From the NCBI RefSeq assembly GCF_022701215.1, contig NZ_CP089976.1:810001-842000 (forward strand): a stretch of 32,000 nucleotides of DNA. Reading direction: 5' to 3'. This stretch comes from Moraxella nasovis (lineage in GTDB: Bacteria > Pseudomonadota > Gammaproteobacteria > Pseudomonadales > Moraxellaceae). Positions 2,518-30,758 of the stretch are shown here, in pieces. The number at the start of each line of letters is the position of its first letter. The stretch's first letter is position 1. Both the position numbers and the translations under genes were made by a program. A model generated the notes under the pieces. It worked only from the letters and a program-made list of their open reading frames with translations, had not been told where the DNA came from and did not search any database.

Positions 2518-4267
2518 CTTTTTTATTGATGATAAGTGCTAGAATAAACATCATCATGCCTGACAACAACAACGTGATAAATTTTAATAAAAAAGGTATG
2601 GCAAGCGAATAATATAACTGCCACAATAAAAACATTAATAAAAATACCGATAATACAGTAATTGCTTTATCTTTTTGATAAATGCCATACGCCAAAATCA
2701 ATAACATCACACCGATATTGATATAGCCAAGCACCATCAGCATGATTGTTAAACCTAAAAATAACGCTATTGTCGTCAGATGATGTTTTGATGTATCTAG
2801 CTGATATAATTGATAAAATACGATCAATAAAATCGGCAATACCACATAATCCATATTGGCATGAAAATTAAGCAATCCAATCTCATCAAAACTGCTTACC
2901 GCCGCAAGCACAGCCAATACACCTATCATGGTAATTGCCAATGGTTTTTTTAAATACTCAATCCTGCGTTGATATAATGCAACCATCGGTAATGTACCAA
3001 CAACCATGAGCAGTGCTTGGCTGATTGGCGTATCATCAAATATCTGCATGATGTCATAACTTATCATGCCATACCACGCAAGCATTTGTAATGCTAGATA
3101 CAACCAATGCACCCGAAGATAAATCAGCACACCAAGCAATACTGTCTGTAAGGGTAGCTGTATCCAAAAATTATTTAACCCAAAGTATTTATCCACCCCA
3201 ATATAAGACGCCACTTGACCCATCGCAAATAACGCATAACCTAAATGACGCAAATAAGTATGATGATAATATTGTTTTAAAATGGCGATACCGACAATGA
3301 TAAACAACAGCCCTGTGATAAGTGGCAAGTTATCAATATCAAACAACATAAACAATGAGATAAACCAAGCAGAAAACCAGCCGCCAATCCCAAAGGCAAT
3401 CGCATGATAGTTGGCATTTGGAAATAGGCATAAAATCAAATAACCCATCGCCCCAAACCACAACATCGCCATAAAACCAATGGCAAAAAGCTTATCAGTA
3501 AAGACGTGAACGCACAGCCCCACAAATAACGCTGTCCCAAAACCAATCAAAGATAGACTACTAATCCACGCATTAGCACATCGTTTGGCATACCACCACA
3601 TTATCACAAGTGCCAAAAAACCCGTGAAATTTATGTAACTTATTGACTGATGAAAGTTAATACTAACCGCACCAATGCTTGCAATGACTGCACACTCTAA
3701 CACAAATAACCAAAGTAGCGAGCGATACCACCAACTGGCAACAAAAAACTGTGCCAACGTAAGCAGTGCAAGAGCAGTTATCAGCACGCCAAAATCCATA
3801 TTTTGGCTTGTCAGCATAAGCCAAAACGCCACTTGTGAGACCACAGCCATCAGCACAAAAATGCCGATATTTTGCCGATAACACCACGGCAGCAGTAAAA
3901 CTGTCCAAATCATAAACAACCAAAAACTATCCGCCCCACTTTGATACACTTGTCCGATGACCGCAAGCGATAAACCTATCATCGCTCCGCTTATTGTCTC
4001 AAAGGTATTTTTAAGTAGCTTTACTGTGCTGATTTTTGTCGTATCATCTTTTGGCGACACCATCAACGACAATAGAGCAAACAGCACCATCAATATCATT
4101 GGCAAAGCAAGTTTGATGGCATTTGGCATCATAAACCAATTTGCCCCCACCAAATATAACAGCGACACCGCCACAAGCGACAAGCCAATCGCCATCAGAT
4201 AGCGAATAAATTTGGGGTGCGTGAGCGGATAAGGATTGGCAGATGGATAAGGTTGATTTGCGTGCAT
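2498..4267 (-). CDS. Polytopic inner-membrane protein, DUF4401/DUF2157-like
   Basis: 589 aa, almost entirely hydrophobic helices. Its position directly upstream of a GDYXXLXY gene is the usual partner arrangement for these DUF families. Confidence 0.65.
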   Translation of the reverse strand: MHANQPYPSANPYPLTHPKFIRYLMAIGLSLVAVSLLYLVGANWFMMPNAIKLALPMILMVLFALLSLMVSPKDDTTKISTVKLLKNTFETISGAMIGLSLAVIGQVYQSGADSFWLFMIWTVLLLPWCYRQNIGIFVLMAVVSQVAFWLMLTSQNMDFGVLITALALLTLAQFFVASWWYRSLLWLFVLECAVIASIGAVSINFHQSISYINFTGFLALVIMWWYAKRCANAWISSLSLIGFGTALFVGLCVHVFTDKLFAIGFMAMLWFGAMGYLILCLFPNANYHAIAFGIGGWFSAWFISLFMLFDIDNLPLITGLLFIIVGIAILKQYYHHTYLRHLGYALFAMGQVASYIGVDKYFGLNNFWIQLPLQTVLLGVLIYLRVHWLYLALQMLAWYGMISYDIMQIFDDTPISQALLMVVGTLPMVALYQRRIEYLKKPLAITMIGVLAVLAAVSSFDEIGLLNFHANMDYVVLPILLIVFYQLYQLDTSKHHLTTIALFLGLTIMLMVLGYINIGVMLLILAYGIYQKDKAITVLSVFLLMFLLWQLYYSLAIPFLLKFITLLLSGMMMFILALIINKKGDCHVA

Positions 4268-5470: not shown

Positions 5471-6181
5471 TTACAGCTTTTGTAAAATCTCAGAAATTTC
5501 TTGATTGGCTCTGCCCTCATCTTCTAAGTTACCGCGTGGGCTTAGTTCATCCATCACTTGGGGGAGTAAATCTGCGATGCCTTGACATACTTCATTTTGG
5601 CTTGCCCCTGTTTTTTCACAGACGCTGTTGATTTCATCATTGCCAAATAATCTTTTGATGTCGCCTATATCAATGCCGTCATTATCTCGGTCAATGCTAA
5701 GCCAAGACTGAGCTTTATTGCCAAGCCCATTACTATCAAACTTCGACAGCACGCCTGATAATCCGCCACTTTTTTGGATAAATCCAAGCACAACGGGTAA
5801 TAAAGCCACAAGTAAGGTCGATTTATTAAAGCTACCACGACCCCCCATCTGCGAACCAATCACCGAACCTAATACAGAGCCTAGATCGTTTGGTGATTTA
5901 GACTGACCGCCAAGCAGACCACCTAGAACGTCGCCTAATTGACCGCCTGACTGGCGTCCACCACCTAGCACACCGCCTAAGATATCACCAAGCCCGCCTT
6001 GGCTGGTGCGTGACTTTTGCTGACGGCTGTCGTTATCACCTAAGACATCGCCAAAAATACCGCCCAATGCACCGCCAATTCCGCTATTTTGGCTATTTTT
6101 TTGCGTATGACGGTTATCATCGCTAATGGCGTTTTTGACCACTTGGGTAACAATGTTTTGTAATAAACTCATGATGTTCAT
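5471..6181 (-). CDS. YidB-like (DUF937) protein with Gly-rich repeats
   Basis: Central GDxLGG-type glycine repeats. The C-terminal region (AQSWLS...GDIKRLFG...LLPQVMDELSPRGNL) resembles the YidB/DUF937 C-terminus. Confidence 0.65.
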   Translation of the reverse strand: MNIMSLLQNIVTQVVKNAISDDNRHTQKNSQNSGIGGALGGIFGDVLGDNDSRQQKSRTSQGGLGDILGGVLGGGRQSGGQLGDVLGGLLGGQSKSPNDLGSVLGSVIGSQMGGRGSFNKSTLLVALLPVVLGFIQKSGGLSGVLSKFDSNGLGNKAQSWLSIDRDNDGIDIGDIKRLFGNDEINSVCEKTGASQNEVCQGIADLLPQVMDELSPRGNLEDEGRANQEISEILQKL

Positions 6182-6282
6182 CCTAAATTTGGTAAGTTTA
6201 CACTATCATAACAAAATTTATCATCACAAAATAGTGGGCTTATGTAACGGTACGTAAACTTAAGTGACATTAAGCAAAAAAA

Positions 6283-6332: not shown

Positions 6333-7595
6333 TTAGCCAATAAAACCGATAAAGGTCTGCAAAATCGCCACATTGACAATATCCACAAAGAACGCCCCCA
6401 CCATCGGCACAATCAAAAATGCCTTATGCGATGGCACATAGCGGTCGGTAATCGCCTGCATATTGGCGATGGCGGTTGGGGTGGCTCCCATACCAAAACC
6501 ACAATGACCTGCTGCTAAAACGGCAGCATCATAGTCTTTACCCATAATGCGATACGTCACAAATGTGGCATATAGCACCATGACAACAGTCTGCACCACC
6601 AAGATGATCAAAATTGGACCTGCCAAGTCTGTTAATTCCCACAGTTTTAATGACAATAATGCCATCGCTAAAAATAACGACAAAGATGCATTGCCAAACA
6701 CATCAATCGCTCTATCAAACATATCAAAATTAAAAAGATTGGTTAGGATATTACGAATCACCACACCGCCAAATAACGCCCACACAAACTGTGGCAACTC
6801 AAACCAAGTATCCTTGGCAACACCCACCATAATATCTGAAAATGCCAAGCAAGCAGCGAACAGTGCTAGAGTTTCTACCGCTGAAATCGCTGTGATTAGA
6901 CGCACATCATCTGATTTTTCAAAGATTTCTTCGCTGGAATAATCACCGCCTTTAATGTCAGTAGGCGTACCATCTAAGCTGCGAGCAGTAGCATTTAATG
7001 GCGTGCCACTTTGCACACTTGACTTTATACCAAGCTTATTAATCAAGCGACGAGCCACAGGACCGCCAATAATACCACCTGATACCAAGCCATAAGTGGC
7101 ACAAGCAATACCCAATGTCGTCGCCCCGACAACGCCATAGGTCTCTTCAAAGGTCGCACCCCATGCTCCTGCTGTACCATGTCCGCCCGTTAACGCAATC
7201 GAACCTGCAACTAAGCCAAGTAACGGATCAATGTCAAGCAGCTTCGCTAGGCCAACACCCACCGCATCTTGTAAAATGATGAAAAATGACACCACGAACA
7301 AAAATACCAGCAAGCCTTTGCCGCCTGCTTTTAGACGGCTAAAGTCTGCCGATAAACCGATGGATGCAAAAAACATGAGCATACAAGCAGTCTGCAATTC
7401 TTTTTGGAAATTAAAACTATAACCAAAGGCGACATTTAGCCCATAAACAATCGCCGCACCAACCAAGCCACCTGCCACAGGTTCAGGAATGTTAAAGTCG
7501 GATAAAAATTTAATACGTTTTACCAAAAAACGCCCTACAAGCAACACAAGCGTTGCTAAAATCAGCGTGTAATAGCCGTTTAATGTAAATTCCAT
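6333..7595 (-). CDS. gltS: Sodium/glutamate symporter GltS
   Basis: Start trimmed to the ATG at 7595 (MEFTLNGYYTLILATLVLLVGRFLVKRIKFLSDFNIPEPVAGGL...), the characteristic GltS N-terminus. About 420 aa polytopic protein. Confidence 0.85.
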   Translation of the reverse strand: MEFTLNGYYTLILATLVLLVGRFLVKRIKFLSDFNIPEPVAGGLVGAAIVYGLNVAFGYSFNFQKELQTACMLMFFASIGLSADFSRLKAGGKGLLVFLFVVSFFIILQDAVGVGLAKLLDIDPLLGLVAGSIALTGGHGTAGAWGATFEETYGVVGATTLGIACATYGLVSGGIIGGPVARRLINKLGIKSSVQSGTPLNATARSLDGTPTDIKGGDYSSEEIFEKSDDVRLITAISAVETLALFAACLAFSDIMVGVAKDTWFELPQFVWALFGGVVIRNILTNLFNFDMFDRAIDVFGNASLSLFLAMALLSLKLWELTDLAGPILIILVVQTVVMVLYATFVTYRIMGKDYDAAVLAAGHCGFGMGATPTAIANMQAITDRYVPSHKAFLIVPMVGAFFVDIVNVAILQTFIGFIG

Positions 7596-7815
7596 AAACA
7601 CTCCAATAAAAAAAACAGACAGTAAAAACTGTCCGTCCTGACACGATAAAATGGTGCAACACATCAGCATGTAAAGACAACTTTCATACGCCAGCATTGC
7701 AAAATGATAAAGCATTGTAACATTTTTAGCGACGTTATCAAAGCCCAACTCATCAAACCACGCCAAAATAAACCTTAAGCTTATTTTGGCGACACGCTAA
7801 ACCACCTAACTGCTA

Positions 7816-10800
7816 TCAACGCAAGAATGCACGAGCATTGCGGAATAAACGTAACCACGCTCCATCTTGTTGCCATGCGTCAGGCTTCCAAGAATGGTTC
7901 ACCGCACGCAAGGTACGCTCTGGGTGTGGCATCATCAAAGTAACTCGCCCATCACTACTACACACGCCTGTGATGCCTTGTGGCGAACCATTTGGGTTGA
8001 GTGGATAATGCTCGGTCGGATTGCCTTGACTGTCCACATAACGCAAGGCGATTTGACCATGTAGGCTAAGCTCATTGATTGATTTGTCGGTCAAATCCGC
8101 ATAGCCTTCGCCATGTGCCACCGCAACTGGCAAAATACTGTCTTGCATGCCTTTTAGTAGCACAGACTTGGTGCGCTCTACTTGCACATTGACCGTGCGT
8201 GCTTCAAAGCGTGCCGATTGGTTTTGGATAAAACGTGGGAAATGGTCAGCCCCCACCATCAGCTCTTTTAATTGGCTCATCATCTGACAGCCATTACACA
8301 CGCCCAAGGCGAATGTCTCTTGGCGATGAAAGAATCTGGCAAACTGCATACGCAATTCATCATGGAATAATACCGAGTTTGCCCAGCCAGAGCCTGCCCC
8401 AAGCACATCGCCATAGCTAAATCCACCGCACGCCACCAAGCCTTCAAAATCACGCAAGTTAATGCGTCCGCTCATCAAATCGCTCATATGCACGTCAATG
8501 GCTTCAAAGCCTGCACGCACAAAGCCTGCCGCCATTTCAAGATGTCCATTCACGCCTTGCTCACGCAAAATCGCCACTTTTGGTTGGCTTGTGCGACTAT
8601 TCACATAAGGAGCTTCTACCGCCAAATCCAGCTCATAATTCGCCTGTGCAATCAGTCCATGATGGCTAGGGTCGCTGATGAGTGCAAACTCTTGGTCGGC
8701 ACACACAGGATTATCACGCAGTCTTGCGATGGCATGGCTAACCTTGCTCCATTGTTCTTGTAATTGAGCACGGCTAAATTGGGTGGTTTGGCTTGGGGTA
8801 ATGATACTTAATGTGTCTTGATTAGCCCCGCCTTTTGGTGTGGCATAAGTTTGACCAATGTCGCTTAGCATATCCGCCACCTGATGGGTCTTGGCAAGCT
8901 CAATGAATGTCGCCACATCATCTGCAAGCACCTGCACGACCGCCCCCAACTCTTCGGCGAACAGCTGTCCTAGTAGATTGTCATCAGATAGGTTTAATTC
9001 CACTTTTAAGCGACTGGCAAACTGCATCTCTGCCACACTTGCCACCAAACCACCATCACTAATATCATGATAAGCACGGATAAGCCCTGCCCCACTTGCC
9101 GCTTGAATGAAAGCGAACAGATTGCCAAGGTCAGACGCATTATCCACATCAGGGCAATCATCGCCCAGCTGACTTAATGTCTGAGCAAAAATTGAACCAC
9201 CCAAGCGGTATTTGCCTTTGGATAAATCAAGGCGGAATAATTTTGCGTCTGTATTGACAAGCTCTGGCGTGATGGTCTTGGCGACATCTTGTACAGGGGC
9301 AAAGGCTGTGATGATAAGACTCATCGGCGAGCTGACGGTCTTCTCCACGCCATCATCTTGCCAGTTTGCCTTCATAGACAAGCTGTCTTTGCCCACAGGA
9401 ATGGTAATGCCAAGTGCAGGGCATAGCTCTTCGCCAATGGCATACACTGCATCATACAGTGCTTCATCTTCACGCTCATCGCCACACGCTGCCATCCAGT
9501 TAGCAGACAAGGTAACATCTGACACCTTATTGATACGAGCAGACGCAATATTCGTCAAGGCTTCGCCCACCGCAAGCCGTGCAGATGCTTTGGGGCTGAT
9601 GAGTGCAACTGGCGTACGCTCACCCATCGCCATCGCCTCGCCAGTATCTGCAAGCAGTCCTGTCATCGTAACTGCACAGTCCGCCACAGGCACTTGATAA
9701 GGTCCGACATACTGGTCTTGGGTAACCATGCCTGTGATAGAACGGTCGCCAATGCTAATCAAAAACGACTTACTGGCAACGGTTGGGTGTCTTAGCACAT
9801 CTGTAATACTGGTCGCCAAATCCACCCCAGAGACATCAAGCGAACGCAAAGGATTGTCCTTGCGATGAAACGCACGCTTCATTTTGGGCGTGCCACCTAA
9901 TAGCACCTGCATGGGCATATCCACAGGCTGTTCTGGCAGCAGGCTGTCGTCTACTTTTAGTTCACGCACCGCCGTTGCTATGCCCAAGATGGCATACGGA
10001 CACCGCTCACGAGCACAGATTTCATCAAATAATTTTTCATTTTGGGGTGAGATGGCAAGCACATAACGCTCTTGGGCTTCGTTGGACCAGATTGCCATTG
10101 GCGACATACCTTGTTCTAGCGAAGGTACTTTACGCAAATTAAGATGAGCCCCAAGCTCATGGTCGTCCACAAGCTCTGGCATGGCATTGGACAGCCCACC
10201 TGCTCCCACGTCATGGATAGAGACGATTGGGTTATTATCATCGCCATCTTTTGCCATCGCCCAGCAGGTGTCAATCACTTCTTGACAGCGACGTTCCATC
10301 TCAGCATTATCACGTTGTACAGACGCAAAATCCAAGCCTTCGTCAAGCTCACCACTATCCACCGAGCTTGCCGCACCACCACCCAAACCAATCTGCATGG
10401 CAGGACCGCCAAGCACGATGAGCAAATCGCCTTGTTGAATGGCGTTTTTTTGTACCAAATTACGCTTGATGTTACCATAGCCCCCTGCAATCATAATCGG
10501 CTTATGATAGCCACGCATTTGGCTGCCGTCTTGGTCGGCTGACGTGTCTAGCTCAAAGCTACGAAAATAACCATTTAAATTTGGGCGACCAAATTCATTG
10601 GCAAAGGCTGCCGACCCCAGCGGTCCGTCAATCATAATCTCCAAAGCACTTGCCATACGCTCAGGCTTGCCATAGTCCTTGGTTGATACCTTGCCTGATG
10701 TTTCCCATTTTTCTAGCATATTTGGCAGGTGCAAATGCGACACACTAAATCCTGCCAAGCCTGCTTTTGGCTTGCCACCACGCCCTGTCGCCCCTTCATC

Positions 10801-20240: not shown

Positions 20241-22082
20241 CTATTCATCGCCAAACTTACGTTTTGCTTTTTTTGCTTGACGCTTAGCAAAAAAAACTTC
20301 TTCCTCTGATCCACGAGTTTTCTTTGAAAATGGGTGATCGTTCTTCTTATATGACGGCTTATCGCTAAAATACGATGGCTTATCGCTAAATCCTGAACGT
20401 CTATTATCACCAAATTTTGGCTTGTCGTTAAAGCGTGGTTTGTCACCGAAGCGTGGTTTGTCATTAAAGCGTGGTTTGTCATTAAAGCGTGGTTTGTCAC
20501 CAAAACGTGGTTTGTCATTAAAGCGTGGTTTATCGTCTCGTCTAGTATCTCGTCTGTCATCAAAGCGACGTTCGCTTGTGTCGGCTCTGTCATTACGATA
20601 GGGTCTATCTGCATATCCCTCATTACGGCGGTTGCGGTTGTCGTCACCACGCCCAAACTGACGCTCATCACGACCTGCCTTAAGCCTACGATCAAACCTG
20701 CCTTGCCCTTGACTACGCCCCTCAAATCGACCGCCACGACCGCCATCACGACGATTACCACGGTCTTTTTTACGGCGATTATCGTCAAGGTTTGGGGCAG
20801 GACGCCTTGGCTCAAGCCCTTCTACAACAGCCGTCTTCATGTCACGCTTTAGATAATGGTTAATCTTAAACAACTGTGAACGATCATCCATACTGCATAG
20901 ATTCATCGCCACACCTGTGCGTCCAGCACGACCACAGCGACCGATACGATGCACATAATCTTCTACTTGGCGTGGCAAATCATAGTTTACAACGTGACTG
21001 ATGTTTGAGATGTCAATACCACGAGCAGCGACATCTGTTGCAATAAGAAAGTCACATTTACCACTTTTTACATCACTGATAATGCGGTTACGTTTGCCTT
21101 GGGGCAAATCACCATGCAGATAACGTGCCTTTAGCCCTGCTTCAACAAGCGTCTCGGCAAGCTGTTCGGTGCTGCGTTTGGTTGCTGTAAAAATCACAGC
21201 TTGGCTAATCTTAGGGTCACTTAGTAGCTCAATTAAAATCTTATTTTTATGGTGAAAGTCATCACAAAAATACACACTTTCATCAATGTGAGCTGATTCT
21301 ACTTTAATGGCGACACGTTCAGGATTTACTGTGAAACTTTCTGCAATTTTACCAACTGCTCCATCCCAAGTTGCTGATGACATGATGGTCTGACGAGATT
21401 CTGGAGCAGCTTGTAAAATGGCACTGATGTCATCGGCAAAGCCCATATCCAGCATACGATCAGCTTCATCCAAAATCAACGTATCAAGCTCAGACAGATC
21501 CACTCGCTCACTGTTTATGTGATCGATTAAGCGTCCCGGTGTTGCGATGACGATTTGGACGCCTTTGCGTAAGGCACGAATCTGACCGCTATACGGTGCA
21601 CCACCGACAAGCGGCACACTAAAGATGCCTTTAAGCTCACCGCTGTACTTACGCACATTGTCTTGAACTTGCATGGCAAGCTCGCGGGTTGGCGTTAAAA
21701 TTAGGGCTTTGATTGGGGTTTTTTGGTAACGGTCGTGTGATTTTTGACTAAAATCATCTTTATTAACTTCATCTGTCTTTGGCTTGGCAGACTGAGTGGC
21801 TAAGCTGTGCAGAATCGGCAGAACAAATGCTGCTGTCTTGCCAGAGCCTGTTTGTGCTGACAATAATAAATCACGACCATCTAAGGCGTGCGGGATTGCT
21901 CCTGCTTGGATTGGGGTAGGCTTGGTGTAGCCTGATTTGGTTAATGCTTTTAAAATCAGCTTATGTAAGTTTAAATCAGCAAAAGTTGTTTCATCGGTCG
22001 CCACATCTTCTATTGCCTGCTGGGCAAGGGTTGGGCTTAAAATTGCTTTAAGGTTTAACGGATTTTGAGTTTCGTTCGTCAT
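20241..22082 (-). CDS. rhlE: DEAD-box ATP-dependent RNA helicase (RhlE-like) with a long Arg/Asp-rich repetitive C-terminal tail
   Basis: Q-motif (TFADL...PTPIQ), motif I AQTGSGKT, DEAD, SAT and HRIGRCGRAG. The N-terminal core is collinear with E. coli RhlE. The last roughly 180 aa are a basic low-complexity tail. Confidence 0.9.
   Translation of the reverse strand: MTNETQNPLNLKAILSPTLAQQAIEDVATDETTFADLNLHKLILKALTKSGYTKPTPIQAGAIPHALDGRDLLLSAQTGSGKTAAFVLPILHSLATQSAKPKTDEVNKDDFSQKSHDRYQKTPIKALILTPTRELAMQVQDNVRKYSGELKGIFSVPLVGGAPYSGQIRALRKGVQIVIATPGRLIDHINSERVDLSELDTLILDEADRMLDMGFADDISAILQAAPESRQTIMSSATWDGAVGKIAESFTVNPERVAIKVESAHIDESVYFCDDFHHKNKILIELLSDPKISQAVIFTATKRSTEQLAETLVEAGLKARYLHGDLPQGKRNRIISDVKSGKCDFLIATDVAARGIDISNISHVVNYDLPRQVEDYVHRIGRCGRAGRTGVAMNLCSMDDRSQLFKINHYLKRDMKTAVVEGLEPRRPAPNLDDNRRKKDRGNRRDGGRGGRFEGRSQGQGRFDRRLKAGRDERQFGRGDDNRNRRNEGYADRPYRNDRADTSERRFDDRRDTRRDDKPRFNDKPRFGDKPRFNDKPRFNDKPRFGDKPRFNDKPKFGDNRRSGFSDKPSYFSDKPSYKKNDHPFSKKTRGSEEEVFFAKRQAKKAKRKFGDE
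20409..20534 (-). repeat. Seven tandem 18-bp in-frame repeats encoding (DKPRF[N/G])x7 within the helicase tail
   Basis: Units are GTCATTAAAGCGTGGTTT and near-identical variants. Peptide: DKPRFNDKPRFGDKPRFNDKPRFNDKPRFGDKPRFNDKPKFG. Confidence 0.9.
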
Positions 22083-28396: not shown

Positions 28397-28507
28397 AAAA
28401 AAATGAAAATAATGCTTGATTATCTAATTATAATTAGATATAATAAGCACATATACAGAGCAAAAGCTCGACAATCAACCCAAAGCTACAGGAGCTTACA
28501 AATGAAA
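28397..28507 (+). repeat. 111-bp direct repeat, copy A (promoter + operator + 5'UTR + RBS + first two codons)
   Basis: Letter-by-letter identical to 29281-29391: AAAAAAATGAAAATAATGCTTGATTATCTAATTATAATTAGATATAATAAGCACATATACAGAGCAAAAGCTCGACAATCAACCCAAAGCTACAGGAGCTTACAAATGAAA. Confidence 0.95.
28416..28444 (+). promoter_or_regulatory. Strong sigma70-type promoter A with an embedded 20-bp palindromic operator
   Basis: TTGATT (28416-28421), 17-nt spacer, perfect TATAAT (28439-28444). The palindrome TATCTAATT-AT-AATTAGATA (28421-28440) spans the whole spacer and touches both hexamers. Confidence 0.7.
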
Positions 28508-28786
28508 GTAGTACATATTGATAAATTCGGATTTGGTGATTTTTTTCATGACAACAAAATGAGCGGAGGTACTGCAAAAAACGGTACTCGATATGCAGAA
28601 GTTGTTGTTAATTCTGAAATTTACCACACTTTAAAAAACGGCTTGACAATCATCGGTACTCATAAAAAAAATGGTAGTACTAGAACGTATGAGTTTAACG
28701 GTGAACACGGCAGGGAATTTTACAACTATCACGCTCAGCTTGTTGTAAGATTTTATGGAAAAATGACAGACAAAAAATTAGCTTAA
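28502..28786 (+). CDS. Small hypothetical protein (94 aa), first gene of cassette A; anti-CRISPR/anti-defence candidate
   Basis: AGGAG (28490-28494) lies 7 nt before the ATG at 28502. The longer ORF-track version starts upstream of the -35 element and is unlikely. No family recognised. Confidence 0.65.
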   Translation: MKVVHIDKFGFGDFFHDNKMSGGTAKNGTRYAEVVVNSEIYHTLKNGLTIIGTHKKNGSTRTYEFNGEHGREFYNYHAQLVVRFYGKMTDKKLA

Positions 28787-28833: not shown

Positions 28834-29106
28834 ATGAACAATAACTATGTATTCAATCGTTTATTAACAACGCTCAATTTACACCGTAACCACGACATGA
28901 CCGCCAAAATTTTTAAGCTTGGTGGCACGCACTCTGAAATAACAAAGTCGCTAGTTAAGTCATGGCGTATCAGCGATGAACAAAACAGGCTGTATCGCCC
29001 CATGCTAGACAAGACACTAATATCGTTTTTTGACGGCTTACAACAAGCAAGCAAAGATGAGTTGATAGATATTAATTGCGATATTGTTATAAGAATAAAG
29101 GAGTAA
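28834..29106 (+). CDS. DUF1456 (YehS-like) single-domain protein, 90 aa
   Basis: The pattern N-x-[VI]-[FL]..L...L......DM...IFKLGG......I..W....E......P...L..FFDGL follows the repeat unit of E. coli YehS as I recall it. Confidence 0.55.
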   Translation: MNNNYVFNRLLTTLNLHRNHDMTAKIFKLGGTHSEITKSLVKSWRISDEQNRLYRPMLDKTLISFFDGLQQASKDELIDINCDIVIRIKE

Positions 29107-29111
29107 AAAAA

Positions 29112-29303
29112 ATGGCAAACACTACCAAAGCTCAAGCAAGAGCAGTTAAGCAATATCAACAGACTAGCGAAAGTTGGACTGTACGCACAAAAGACGAACA
29201 AAAGATGCAAATGCTTAAACAAGCAAAAGCAACGGGCAATTTGTCAAAAATATTTTTTGAATTTTTAGAAGAATATTTTAAAAAAAATGAAAATAATGCT
29301 TGA
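29112..29303 (+). CDS. Ribbon-helix-helix (CopG/Arc-like) DNA-binding protein, 63 aa; candidate repressor of the duplicated promoters
   Basis: AAGGAG (29098-29103) lies 8 nt before the ATG at 29112. Beta-strand-like SWTVRTKDEQ is followed by two helices (KMQMLKQAKATG, NLSKIFFEFLEEYF), the classic RHH layout. Confidence 0.6.
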   Translation: MANTTKAQARAVKQYQQTSESWTVRTKDEQKMQMLKQAKATGNLSKIFFEFLEEYFKKNENNA

Positions 29304-29391
29304 TTATCTAATTATAATTAGATATAATAAGCACATATACAGAGCAAAAGCTCGACAATCAACCCAAAGCTACAGGAGCTTACAAATGAAA
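29281..29391 (+). repeat. 111-bp direct repeat, copy B
   Basis: Identical to 28397-28507, offset 884 bp. Its first 23 nt also encode the C-terminus and stop codon of the RHH gene. Confidence 0.95.
29300..29328 (+). promoter_or_regulatory. Promoter B, identical to promoter A, with the same palindromic operator (29305-29324)
   Basis: Same sequence as promoter A. The TGA stop of the upstream RHH gene (29301-29303) lies inside the -35 hexamer. Confidence 0.7.
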
Positions 29392-29803: not shown

Positions 29804-29827
29804 AAAACCGCCCACGCTGGCGGTTTT
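29804..29827 (+). terminator. Intrinsic terminator after the cassette B gene
   Basis: AAAACCGCC-cacgct-GGCGGTTTT hairpin 50 nt after the stop codon. Confidence 0.6.
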
Positions 29828-29910
29828 CAAGACTAAAACAAGATTACGAATATCACTCAATGAACTATAAAATCTTGAACTAAAAGTAAAAGTATTTGAT
29901 GAAATTAAAC

Positions 29911-29939
29911 TTGACAAATCAAATTTATTTTAATAAGAT
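29911..29939 (+). promoter_or_regulatory. Promoter of the CRISPR-repeat-mimic RNA
   Basis: Perfect -35 TTGACA (29911-29916), 17-nt spacer, TAAGAT (29934-29939). The predicted transcription start is about 7-8 nt before the first repeat. Confidence 0.55.
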
Positions 29940-29953
29940 AGTTCATGTAGTTA

Positions 29954-30127
29954 TTACGCCACTGCAAAAAAGTGGCTTAGAAAGTTCTACAATTGTTAAA
30001 AGGGTTCACCACCGCTTAGGTGGCTTAGAAAATTGTATAATTTTAAAATATGTTTACCACCGCTTAGGTGGCTTAGAAAGTTATATGATTGTAAAAAAGG
30101 TTTACCACTGCAGAAGTGGCTTAGAAA
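29954..30127 (+). CRISPR. Orphan array of four type I-F-like CRISPR repeats (28 nt; first copy a degenerate 30 nt) separated by 20-nt mutually homologous linkers; candidate RNA anti-CRISPR or mini-array
   Basis: R1 29954-29983 TTACGCCACTGCAAAAAAGTGGCTTAGAAA. R2 30004-30031 GTTCACCACCGCTTAGGTGGCTTAGAAA. R3 30052-30079 GTTTACCACCGCTTAGGTGGCTTAGAAA. R4 30100-30127 GTTTACCACTGCAGAAGTGGCTTAGAAA. Same architecture as I-F repeats: GTTCA flank, 5-bp stem, 5-nt loop, CTTAGAAA handle. The stem covaries between copies. Confidence 0.6.
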
Positions 30128-30161
30128 ATTATATGATTGTAAATCAGTAATAACTACCAAT

Positions 30162-30184
30162 AAACCCCCAAACTTTGGGGGTTT
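30162..30184. terminator. Strong bidirectional terminator shared by the repeat RNA (+) and the endolysin gene (-)
   Basis: AAACCCCCAA-act-TTGGGGGTTT followed by ATTTTT. Lies 5 nt beyond the endolysin stop on the other strand. Confidence 0.8.
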
Positions 30185-30188
30185 ATTT

Positions 30189-30758
30189 TTACTTAAGCCC
30201 TACTAGATACGTTGTCCGACCGCCACGCTTAACAGCTGTTAGAAACTGACTTCGCTGGTCACCAGCATTTGACTTGTAGCCTAAATGTATCCATGTGCTA
30301 TTTTCGTCAGGGAATTCTAAAATAAGCTGGTCAAACTTTTTTAGCTTGTCTTTTAAAAAGTTAGCAATTTGTCGTGTTGTGCCAAATTCAGGACACTTAA
30401 AGTCAATTGCTCGCCCAAAAGTGTGTGCTGATGTATTAGACCCACCCACCGCACGATTGACATTGGGCGAACGATAACCGCTAGATATATGAATGGGTTT
30501 TCCAAGCAGGTCTCTGACAGGTTGCCACAGATTTACGCTACTATCTATCAAGTTTTGCAATACCCCAGCATCAGGGATATTATCAATGCCACGAGCTTTT
30601 GCGGTATTGCTGTGTAATAGCTCGTTTAAGCTGATGTTTTGCGTGATTTTAATCGTCTTGCCTACAGCTAAAGCGTGCTTTAATGCACGCTGTGACTGCA
30701 CCCCCCACACGCCGTCAGCAGGCGTGTTTATTTGTTCTTGAATGTGTTTGATGTTCAC
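30189..30758 (-). CDS. Phage endolysin, peptidase M15 family (zinc D-Ala-D-Ala carboxypeptidase-like, Peptidase_M15_3)
   Basis: SSGYRSPNVNRAVGGSNTSAHTFGRAIDF (H..D metal ligands) and the distal WIHLGY histidine. GTG start overlaps the upstream stop (GTGA). Confidence 0.8.
   Translation of the reverse strand: MNIKHIQEQINTPADGVWGVQSQRALKHALAVGKTIKITQNISLNELLHSNTAKARGIDNIPDAGVLQNLIDSSVNLWQPVRDLLGKPIHISSGYRSPNVNRAVGGSNTSAHTFGRAIDFKCPEFGTTRQIANFLKDKLKKFDQLILEFPDENSTWIHLGYKSNAGDQRSQFLTAVKRGGRTTYLVGLK

Follow-up and report, generated by a model that had tools for sequence, protein, structure and literature searches.

A Prophage Array of Probable crRNA-like Anti-CRISPR RNAs beside an AcrIF14 Homolog in Moraxella nasovis

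Introduction

A stretch of 32,000 nucleotides (nt) of the Moraxella nasovis genome, referred to below as the window, contains a small RNA unit in which four copies of a type I-F CRISPR repeat follow one another with linkers of 20 nt. Coordinates given without further specification are positions of the window, and the array lies on its + strand, within a prophage. The question that this locus raises is what a prophage does with such a unit: does it store spacers, use up the Cas proteins of the host, or redirect them? Our analysis suggests that the unit is probably an array of CRISPR RNA (crRNA)-like anti-CRISPR RNAs acting against the host type I-F system, i.e., a viral regulatory mini-array, or Cracr array.

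Several known systems bear on this question. Shmakov et al. (2023, PMC10120712) described regulatory mini-arrays in cas loci, which in type I-F1 are situated between cas3 and cas8 and are directed at the Cascade promoter. According to that work, the repeat positions adjacent to the spacer are conserved, the sequence of the stem-loop varies, and the guides resemble those of host mini-arrays. Multi-guide arrays are already on record, among them one from a prophage of Moraxella osloensis. Liu et al. (bioRxiv 10.1101/2024.10.29.618823) reported on the viral versions, named Cracrs, which often form multi-guide arrays, are processed in a Cas-dependent manner, and act as competitors for Cas proteins and as repressors of cas or creT promoters. 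Type I-F Cracrs were shown to have guides of 17-21 nt, mature RNAs of 46 and 49 nt and about four Cas7f subunits, and the guides inside one Cracr array are directed at versions of a single system that occur in related strains. Camara-Wilpert et al. (2023, PMC10651486) found that the active RacrIF1 RNA lies upstream of the Cas6f cut and has no 5' handle; it therefore recruits only Cas6f and a long Cas7f filament, with no Cas5f or Cas8f.

Type I-F Repeats in a Self-Contained RNA Unit

The original prediction, made from the sequence of the window, was that of a self-contained + strand unit of type I-F repeat mimics with a TTGACA-17 nt-TAAGAT promoter and a GC hairpin terminator. Such a unit is indeed present at 29911-30192 (+). 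It consists of a sigma-70 promoter (29911-29939), four repeat copies, three of which match the CRISPR-DR4 family just below its gathering score, and a strong terminator with its hairpin at 30159-30187 (Table 1). According to Tandem Repeats Finder, 29970-30143 holds 3.6 copies at a period of 48 nt (score 222), and GGCTTAGAAA is found four times in the window, each time within the array, against a chance expectation of 0.09. The prediction of four tandem units of about 48 nt, each with the 28-nt geometry of the I-F repeat, was right for R2, R3 and R4 but not for R1, which has a 7-nt loop and no 5' flank and amounts to a hairpin plus handle; similarly, the four repeat copies do recur at 48 nt, but the complete repeat-linker-repeat units are only three in number.

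R2, R3 and R4 match the Rfam family RF01317 (CRISPR-DR4, the type I-F repeat family) over the full length of 28 nt, with the 5-bp (base pair) stem and the 5-nt loop. Their scores of 34.9, 31.6 and 28.9 bits, respectively, are all just below the gathering score of 35 bits, and R1 escapes detection because of its 7-nt loop. The 8-nt handle CUUAGAAA is identical in all four copies, including the degenerate R1. The covariation of the stem within the array, CCACC/GGTGG in R2 and R3 versus CCACT/AGTGG in R1 and R4, was noticed earlier and is borne out by the sequence; it concerns one pair only among the window repeats. In a set of 18 related repeats, which was partly picked by a hairpin filter, the stem is paired in 100% of cases and compensatory changes are seen in 5 of 5 pairs.

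R2 had initially been compared with the Pseudomonas aeruginosa PA14 repeat, and the count of 21 matches in 28 positions is correct. A check of relatives for cas6f and I-F arrays, proposed at the same time, has now revealed arrays of 60-61-nt period beside Cas6f, with closely similar repeats. A genome-wide scan for the stem and handle pattern returned 30 loci, mainly from Psychrobacter and Moraxella, and all 30 are long arrays with a period of 60-61 nt. These genuine arrays adjoin Cas6f (PF09618) in both I-F1 and Cas8-less I-F2 loci, and the stem of R2 is common to many of the Psychrobacter and Moraxella ones. The repeat that is 27/28 identical to R2, with one loop base as the sole difference, belongs to Psychrobacter sp. 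HD31, the arrays of which have a 60-nt period and lie beside Cas6f. Since arrays with a near-identical repeat are found beside Cas6f, the window repeat is cognate for Moraxellaceae I-F systems.

An adaptive array would be recognised by unique spacers of ~32 nt acquired one by one, a 60-nt period and, usually, cas genes nearby. The window array has none of these: its linkers are 20 nt long, its period is 48 nt, and no cas genes were found within the window. The linkers are also homologous to each other, and the identities quoted in the original prediction (S3/S4 17/20, S1/S3 15/20, S2/S3 14/20) proved correct on recounting. Being mutually homologous and 20 rather than 32 nt long, the linkers were duplicated and not acquired, and the earlier view that this is not an adaptive array therefore stands.

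The predicted fold of the unit has a minimum free energy of -76.9 kcal/mol (z = -5.6 versus shuffles) and contains all four hairpins, the terminator and an 11-bp closing stem in which 29947-29957 pairs with 30147-30157. In the same fold, PsiS1 pairs with PsiS2 (29984-30051) and PsiS3 with PsiS4 (30080-30147) because the guides are quasi-palindromic (ATTATATGAT-like). The closing stem had gone unnoticed, as had the number of between-repeat linkers (three), the identity of the neighbouring gene as an AcrIF14 homolog, and the Cas6f and Cas3f of the host.

Linkers as Probable Guides and Their Host Counterparts

Each 48-nt unit can be read as a handle of 8 nt, a guide of 20 nt and a repeat part of 20 nt. 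In related Moraxellaceae I-F loci, a crRNA-like gene in antisense orientation separates cas2-3 from csy1 (or cas7fv); it was found in L200-L203, L207, L208, L204 (Moraxella atlantae, I-F2), L046 and L005. A CC-flanked site located ~60-80 bp from creR matches the CreR guide over 11-17 positions proximal to the protospacer adjacent motif (PAM), with the mismatches falling at position 6 or 12. L208 shows the creR gene only, because its contig stops before the target site. To judge from their guides and sites, these antisense genes are CreR-type autoregulators.

The host CreR unit is also 48 nt long in L200, L204 and L208, and some of the host guides resemble the window linkers when both are read in register, starting at the handle. 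In L208, the CreR guide matches PsiS2 at 16/20, PsiS3 at 14/20 and PsiS4 at 14/20 positions, and that of L200 matches them at 14/20, 14/20 and 13/20, respectively. By shuffling, a maximum of at least 16 has a probability of 0.004; for each natural AT-rich 20-mer taken from the window, the figure is 3e-4. L208, L207 and L200 are the loci closest to M. nasovis as measured by Cas3 identity to its Cas3f (78%, 77% and 75%, respectively); L207 has a CreR guide that does not exceed 10/20 to the window guides. The other eight host guides compared reach at most 11/20.

A further feature concerns the promoter-like character of the guides. When the PAM-proximal six bases of the four window guides are read as the reverse complement, they give TATAAT, TATAAC, TACAAT and TAGAAC, all of which are -10-like hexamers, and each hexamer would precede GG. 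The same order, a -10 box followed by GG, is seen at the host targets (TATTAT-GG in L200 and TATAGT-GG in L207). These features speak for window guides directed at different versions of a single promoter. A periodicity of 6 nt in the variation among guides, considered as a mark of flipped positions, was dropped, as four sequences give no statistical power.

The loops in the window are GCTTA (R2, R3), GCAGA (R4) and GCAAAAA (R1), whereas canonical repeats with this stem have GCACA or GCATA in 614 of 614 cases. GCTTA and GCAAA loops do occur in the creR repeats of M. atlantae (L204), and GCAGA in the creR repeat of L207. The loop variants thus point to a creR origin of the repeats. In sum of anatomy, the window element resembles host CreR/CreA (Cas autorepression, CreTA) in unit structure and size, in its non-canonical loops and in a similar guide that reads as the antisense of a -10 box with an adjoining GG/CC PAM. 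It differs in that the host gene is a single antisense unit inside the cas locus, between cas2-3 and csy1 (or cas7fv), while the window element is multi-unit and lies in a prophage beside an anti-CRISPR (Acr) gene.

Two observations on the host genes deserve mention in their own right. The creR-like genes with CC-PAM targets are also present in Cas8-less I-F2 (Cas7fv/Cas5fv) loci, where they lie between cas2-3 and cas7fv, at ~7780-7870 (-) of L204 (M. atlantae) and at ~7800-7900 (-) of L046 (Psychrobacter). The occurrence of host CreR in both I-F1 and Cas8-less I-F2 systems of Moraxellaceae suggests that crRNA-like Cas autorepression is common in the family. In addition, the complete I-F1 cas operon of L200/L201 (532-1545 and 2050-10603) with its creR adjoins a Rep3-type replication initiator gene, so that the I-F1 system there may be plasmid-borne; a BLAST comparison of the L200 cas3-csy1 junction with plasmids gave no match.

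Proposed Mode of Action and Rival Explanations

If the unit is an array of crRNA-like anti-CRISPR RNAs, Cas6f would cut at the 3' base of each hairpin and release three 48-nt RNAs, each composed of handle, 20-nt guide and hairpin. Because the handle is present, these RNAs would be expected to recruit Cas5f and Cas8f besides Cas6f; as their guide falls 12 nt short of the normal length, they would bind about four Cas7f subunits instead of six. The short complexes would divert Cas proteins from the immune crRNAs, and their guides would lead them either to the promoter of the Cascade (csy) operon, at its -10 region, or to a CreT-type toxin promoter, where binding would repress transcription without cleavage, as host CreR does. 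Several similar guides could cover the promoter variants met with in different host strains. AcrIF14, which blocks DNA binding by Csy complexes of normal length, would be the partner of the array in this action. The M. nasovis genome encodes Cas6f (P0040) and Cas3f (P0198), and therefore the lysogen very probably has its own type I-F system. The array, AcrIF14, Cas6f and Cas3f are found in one lysogen genome, i.e., the RNA and its presumed target occur together in one strain.

Comparison with the published Cracr arrays supports this reading. Like them, the window array lies on a mobile element outside the cas locus, forms its own transcription unit, carries several mutually similar short guides between repeats and stands beside a type I-F Acr gene; its 20-nt guide falls within the viral range of 17-21 nt, and the predicted size of 48 nt is near the reported 46 and 49 nt. 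An array in the viral contig L036 has the same layout as that of the window. There are also differences. The partner Acr in the window is AcrIF14 and not AcrIF24, and we found no description of a closing stem or of an unpaired fourth guide, both of which are features of the window. The rule that viral units are shorter than host ones does not separate the window array, since host CreR units in this Moraxella lineage are 48 nt long. The prophage mini-arrays of M. osloensis and Acinetobacter baumannii (PMC10120712) are alike in context, namely Moraxella prophage and type I-F1; the window array differs from them in the species (M. nasovis), in having four repeats and in its adjacency to AcrIF14, which was not reported there. 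New details are modest and consist of the partnership with AcrIF14 and the creR-like repeat variants.

Several results weigh against the proposal. Targets were sought as a CC PAM plus seed, positions 6, 12 and 18 being ignored, in the window, in 30 array-flank loci and in 16 I-F1/I-F2 loci, complete or partial, from Psychrobacter and Moraxella, among which the M. nasovis cas locus was not included. Within that set, none of the four guides had a CC-PAM target with an unbroken seed; the only noteworthy matches were to the CreR target site of L200-L203 (12-13/17). The matches to the L208 and L200 guides are interrupted at seed positions 3/4 and 8, and for this reason no locus compared provides the at least 9 PAM-proximal matches of the published criterion; in the loci searched, neither a cognate target nor a host CreR with at least 9 seed matches was seen, in which the window array differs from the published Cracr arrays. 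No second copy of the array with the same guides turned up in the viral or metagenome scans. Only three of the linkers are followed by a repeat, the fourth (30128-30147) being without one; this segment may be a duplication remnant or a mere provider of the 3' arm of the closing stem. Finally, the M. nasovis Cas3f, annotated with 811 amino acids (aa), corresponds in alignment to residues 329-1126 of its full-length relatives, the annotated product being devoid of Cas2 and of the N-terminal part. As the Cas3f has only 811 aa, the resident I-F system may be impaired, and its cas2-3 gene may, from the annotated sequence, be split or disrupted.

Some of these results would suit a pure decoy, a multi-copy Racr-like sponge whose repeats use up Cas6f, Cas7f and possibly Cas5f/Cas8f and whose linkers have no target. 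The missing target in the loci searched, the strong promoter and the four copies agree with it, and any non-targeting crRNA lowers interference by Cas competition (PMC10651486). Moreover, the viral contigs L001 and L003 contain units with a single repeat of this family and with the closing-stem layout of the window. Racrs and the window unit have much in common: a repeat mimic, a strong promoter, a prophage anti-CRISPR locus (in the window, with the AcrIF14 homolog directly upstream), recognition of the hairpin by Cas6f and competition with crRNAs for Cas proteins. However, a Racr is a solitary repeat, whereas the window has four repeats and three predicted handle-bearing crRNA-like units. The original prediction favoured Racr-like titration into aberrant complexes, and it is on this point that we depart from it. 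A perfect handle is kept on every internal unit, unlike in RacrIF1, although the Racr mechanism does not need it; the linkers are not random or arbitrary, as they agree in register with host CreR guides and each gives, when the opposite strand is read, a -10 box plus GG; and the 48-nt unit has the exact size of host CreR. Nor was the assumption that a four-copy tandem version would be unusual sustained, since multi-spacer Cracr arrays have been published in the meantime (76 of the 221 acrIF24-linked cracr genes have more than one spacer; Liu et al., 10.1101/2024.10.29.618823). Titration and guidance are compatible, and both were described for Cracrs by Liu et al. (10.1101/2024.10.29.618823). 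We therefore consider a sponge with meaningless linkers unlikely.

The remaining explanations fare worse against the same evidence. In a phage mini-CRISPR array, short spacers would turn the host I-F system on rival phages or plasmids, as a means of superinfection exclusion. Mini-arrays of this repeat family with 32-nt spacers do exist in viral sequences (L002; Acinetobacter phage vB_AbaSI_1), and PAM-flanked 16-nt matches to PsiS2-4 are present in some viral contigs. In a collection of 2.9 million contigs, CC-flanked matches amounted to 4 for PsiS3/4 and 28 for PsiS2, and no PsiS1 protospacer with CC was found in viral contigs. Some 20 among the 28 PsiS2 matches have a flanking sequence in common and represent a single conserved site, which cannot be tied to Moraxella. 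The number of matches is close to the chance expectation for AT-rich 18-mers, and we judged them to be chance, none being attributable to Moraxella phages. The guides, 20 and not 32 nt long and mutually homologous, were duplicated rather than acquired, and the neighbouring AcrIF14 blocks DNA binding by Csy and would defeat interference. Superinfection exclusion is thus a very unlikely role. We regard as similarly improbable a functionless, decaying remnant of a captured CRISPR or creR fragment. The degenerate R1, the last guide without a partner repeat and the single copy of the exact array could be taken as decay, but the promoter and terminator are intact, the four handles are invariant, a compensatory change preserves the stem, the exact 48-nt spacing occurs three times, the fold is stable relative to shuffles (z -5.6), and the setting is an anti-CRISPR locus. 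Short-period "CRISPR arrays" of prophages are better read as candidate anti-defence RNAs than as degenerate arrays. As to a small repeat protein, an 84-aa open reading frame (ORF; 29896-30150) remains open across the array and runs through the repeats because 48 nt equal 16 codons. It starts upstream of the -35 box and would be absent from the transcript of this promoter; frames are open in two + and one - readings across the repeats, as is typical of AT-rich non-coding repeats; no family match was obtained in NCBIfam, the one library scanned; and the CRISPR repeat explains the sequence base for base. The chance that the unit encodes such a protein is negligible. The array of crRNA-like anti-CRISPR RNAs remains the explanation that we find probable.

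Linkage to Anti-CRISPR Genes and Similar Arrays Elsewhere

The original prediction placed the unit in a phage island beside acr-like genes, and one of these neighbours is a real AcrIF14 homolog (E 3.7e-28). A second AcrIF14 homolog is located on the Moraxella catarrhalis plasmid NZ_CP018060 (L198), followed by a similar, convergent array at 2890-3095 (-). That unit has the promoter TTGACG-17-TATATT, three I-F-like hairpins, two short guides and a terminator; an antirestriction gene lies near the array. Two phage records from Acinetobacter, L197 and L211, which are identical in this region, show a mini-array with one spacer of 32 nt ~1 kb from their AcrIF14 homolog. No array accompanies the homologs of Mcat5, Mcat7 and Mcat8 or that of one viral contig, the single locus of the scan with AcrIF14 as bait. 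The link between AcrIF14 and such arrays is real but sporadic, with two clear cases.

A search of viral contigs for three I-F handles at a period of 46-50 nt recovered two more arrays, L036 and L044, with 3-4 short, mutually similar guides. The L036 array has four guides and lies directly downstream of an AcrIF24 homolog (E 2.8e-40; 6549-7400 and 7796-8000), and it therefore belongs to the published class. The L044 array lies directly downstream of an AcrIF9 homolog (E 9.6e-36; 284-514 and 607-800). For the window array, no match to AcrIF24 was found among the four neighbouring ORFs. Linkage to acrIF24 is frequent and not defining, as the first screen to be published saw it in 21 of 58 cases (Liu et al., bioRxiv 10.1101/2024.10.29.618823). 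The main texts of Liu et al. (10.1101/2024.10.29.618823) and Shmakov et al. (PMC10120712), to which this statement applies rather than to their supplementary tables, do not mention AcrIF14; with the same restriction, AcrIF9 is absent from the main text of Liu et al. (10.1101/2024.10.29.618823). The AcrIF14 linkage of such arrays appears to be new. The known link between arrays and Acrs is thereby widened from AcrIF24 to AcrIF14 and, via L044, to AcrIF9.

AcrIF14 is known to bind Cas7.4f and Cas7.6f, to block target hybridisation and to induce non-specific DNA binding, like AcrIF9 (PMC8464039), and AcrIF24 has properties similar to those of AcrIF14 and AcrIF9 (10.1101/2024.10.29.618823). One may tentatively ask whether short-guide crRNA-like arrays are general partners of those I-F Acrs that bind the Cas7f backbone and induce non-specific DNA binding, and not a speciality of acrIF24; we rate this generalisation as possible though doubtful. 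If it is true, complexes of four Cas7f subunits on 48-nt RNAs must stay active alongside AcrIF14. The published truncation model assumes the loss of Csy3.1 and Csy3.2, with Cas7.4f and Cas7.6f retained. Since the subunits to which AcrIF14 binds are kept in the truncated complex, escape from AcrIF14 would need a mechanism other than that shown for AcrIF24. This raises the question of how short Csy complexes work while a co-encoded Acr blocks DNA binding.

Other scans give a picture of related viral elements. With the handle and guide-start pattern CTTAGAAARTTNTAYRATTNT, in a loose form without the leading G, 22 viral and at least 120 metagenome loci were obtained, and there were no I-F repeats among the 142 matches listed. 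A search of viral contigs for the same repeat family at a spacing of 16-24 nt gave no match. Single-repeat units of the same repeat family with promoters of their own are present in the viral contigs L001 (~2130-2260, -) and L003 (~470-660, +), in the latter as two units in tandem. In these units a long-range stem joins the 5' end of the transcript to the sequence before the T run, which is the closing-stem layout of the window, and they look like Racr candidates. The viral contig L002 carries at 5980-6220 (-) a five-repeat mini-array of the same repeat family with unrelated 32-nt spacers, i.e., a conventional phage mini-CRISPR array.

The Prophage Locus

The bases 1-28282 of the window hold ordinary chromosomal genes (NifU-like, purL, a hybrid histidine kinase, cysK-like, a DEAD-box helicase, relA/spoT, fpg, mscL and typA). 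The prophage starts at ~28.3 kb, and its first 1.9 kb make up the anti-CRISPR locus. The features of the locus are collected in Table 1.

Table 1. Annotated features of the anti-CRISPR locus and of the RNA unit, in window coordinates (UTR, untranslated region).
Feature	Position	Strand	Remarks
111-bp promoter/5'UTR direct repeat, copy 1	28397-28507	+	TTGATT-17-TATAAT; palindrome at 28421-28440
94-aa ORF, first gene of first operon	28502-28786	+	No recognisable family; candidate Acr
90-aa ORF, DUF1456	28834-29106	+	PF07308, 30.4 bits (cutoff 27)
63-aa helical ORF	29112-29303	+	No known family
111-bp promoter/5'UTR repeat, copy 2	29281-29391	+	100% identical to copy 1; palindrome at 29305-29324; drives AcrIF14 gene
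AcrIF14 homolog, 122 aa	29386-29754	+	PDB 7ecv/7du0, E 3.7e-28, residues 1-121/122
Terminator-like hairpin AAAACCGCC/GGCGGTTTT	29804-29827	+	Ends acrIF14 transcript
Promoter TTGACA-17 nt-TAAGAT	29911-29939	+	Predicted transcription start ~29946
Closing stem, 5' arm GTAGTTATTAC	29947-29957	+	At very start of predicted transcript
R1 (PsiR1)	29959-29983	+	Hairpin CCACT-GCAAAAA-AGTGG, intact handle CTTAGAAA, 5' flank degenerate
PsiS1 GTTCTACAATTGTTAAAAGG	29984-30003	+
R2 GTTCACCACCGCTTAGGTGGCTTAGAAA	30004-30031	+	Rfam CRISPR-DR4 match
PsiS2 ATTGTATAATTTTAAAATAT	30032-30051	+	16/20 to L208 host CreR guide, in register
R3 GTTTACCACCGCTTAGGTGGCTTAGAAA	30052-30079	+	Rfam CRISPR-DR4 match
PsiS3 GTTATATGATTGTAAAAAAG	30080-30099	+
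R4 GTTTACCACTGCAGAAGTGGCTTAGAAA	30100-30127	+	Rfam CRISPR-DR4 match
PsiS4-like segment ATTATATGATTGTAAATCAG	30128-30147	+	No repeat after; candidate guide
Closing stem, 3' arm GTAATAACTAC	30147-30157	+	Directly before terminator
Intrinsic terminator, bidirectional	30159-30192	both	13-bp G+C hairpin at 30159-30187 and T run
Peptidase_M15 endolysin	30189-30758	-	59% identical to gene product beside Mcat5 acrIF14, syntenic

Both small-gene operons are headed by a copy of the 111-bp repeat, the two copies flanking the first operon; copy 1 drives three small ORFs and copy 2 the AcrIF14 homolog. In each copy a perfect 20-bp palindrome, TATCTAATTATAATTAGATA, spans the promoter. To judge from this position, the palindrome is probably an Aca-type operator; no helix-turn-helix protein was recognised among the neighbouring ORFs. 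Comparison of the three other small ORFs with Pfam, PHROGs, NCBIfam and PDB yielded nothing informative except DUF1456, and a single-sequence structure model of the 63-aa ORF was uninformative.

The AcrIF14 homolog is 42.7% identical to the protein of Moraxella phage Mcat5, the structurally solved AcrIF14. In Mcat5, acrIF14 is followed by a 51-bp gap and then by a convergent gene homologous to the lysin gene of the window. The gap between acrIF14 and the lysin gene in the window is 434 bp and contains the terminator-like hairpin and the RNA unit. Given this synteny and the absence of an array from the Mcat5 gap, the window array is an insertion relative to Mcat5. As the hairpin at 29804-29827 ends the acrIF14 transcript, the RNA unit downstream needs its own promoter. 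At the other end of the unit, the T run of the terminator overlaps the stop codon of the - strand lysin gene.

Outside the prophage, an 18-nt tandem repeat with 6.3 copies, which can also be read as a 54-nt period, is found at 20418-20531, within the 3' end of the gene for the DEAD-box helicase (20241-22082, -), where it presumably encodes a repetitive C-terminal tail.

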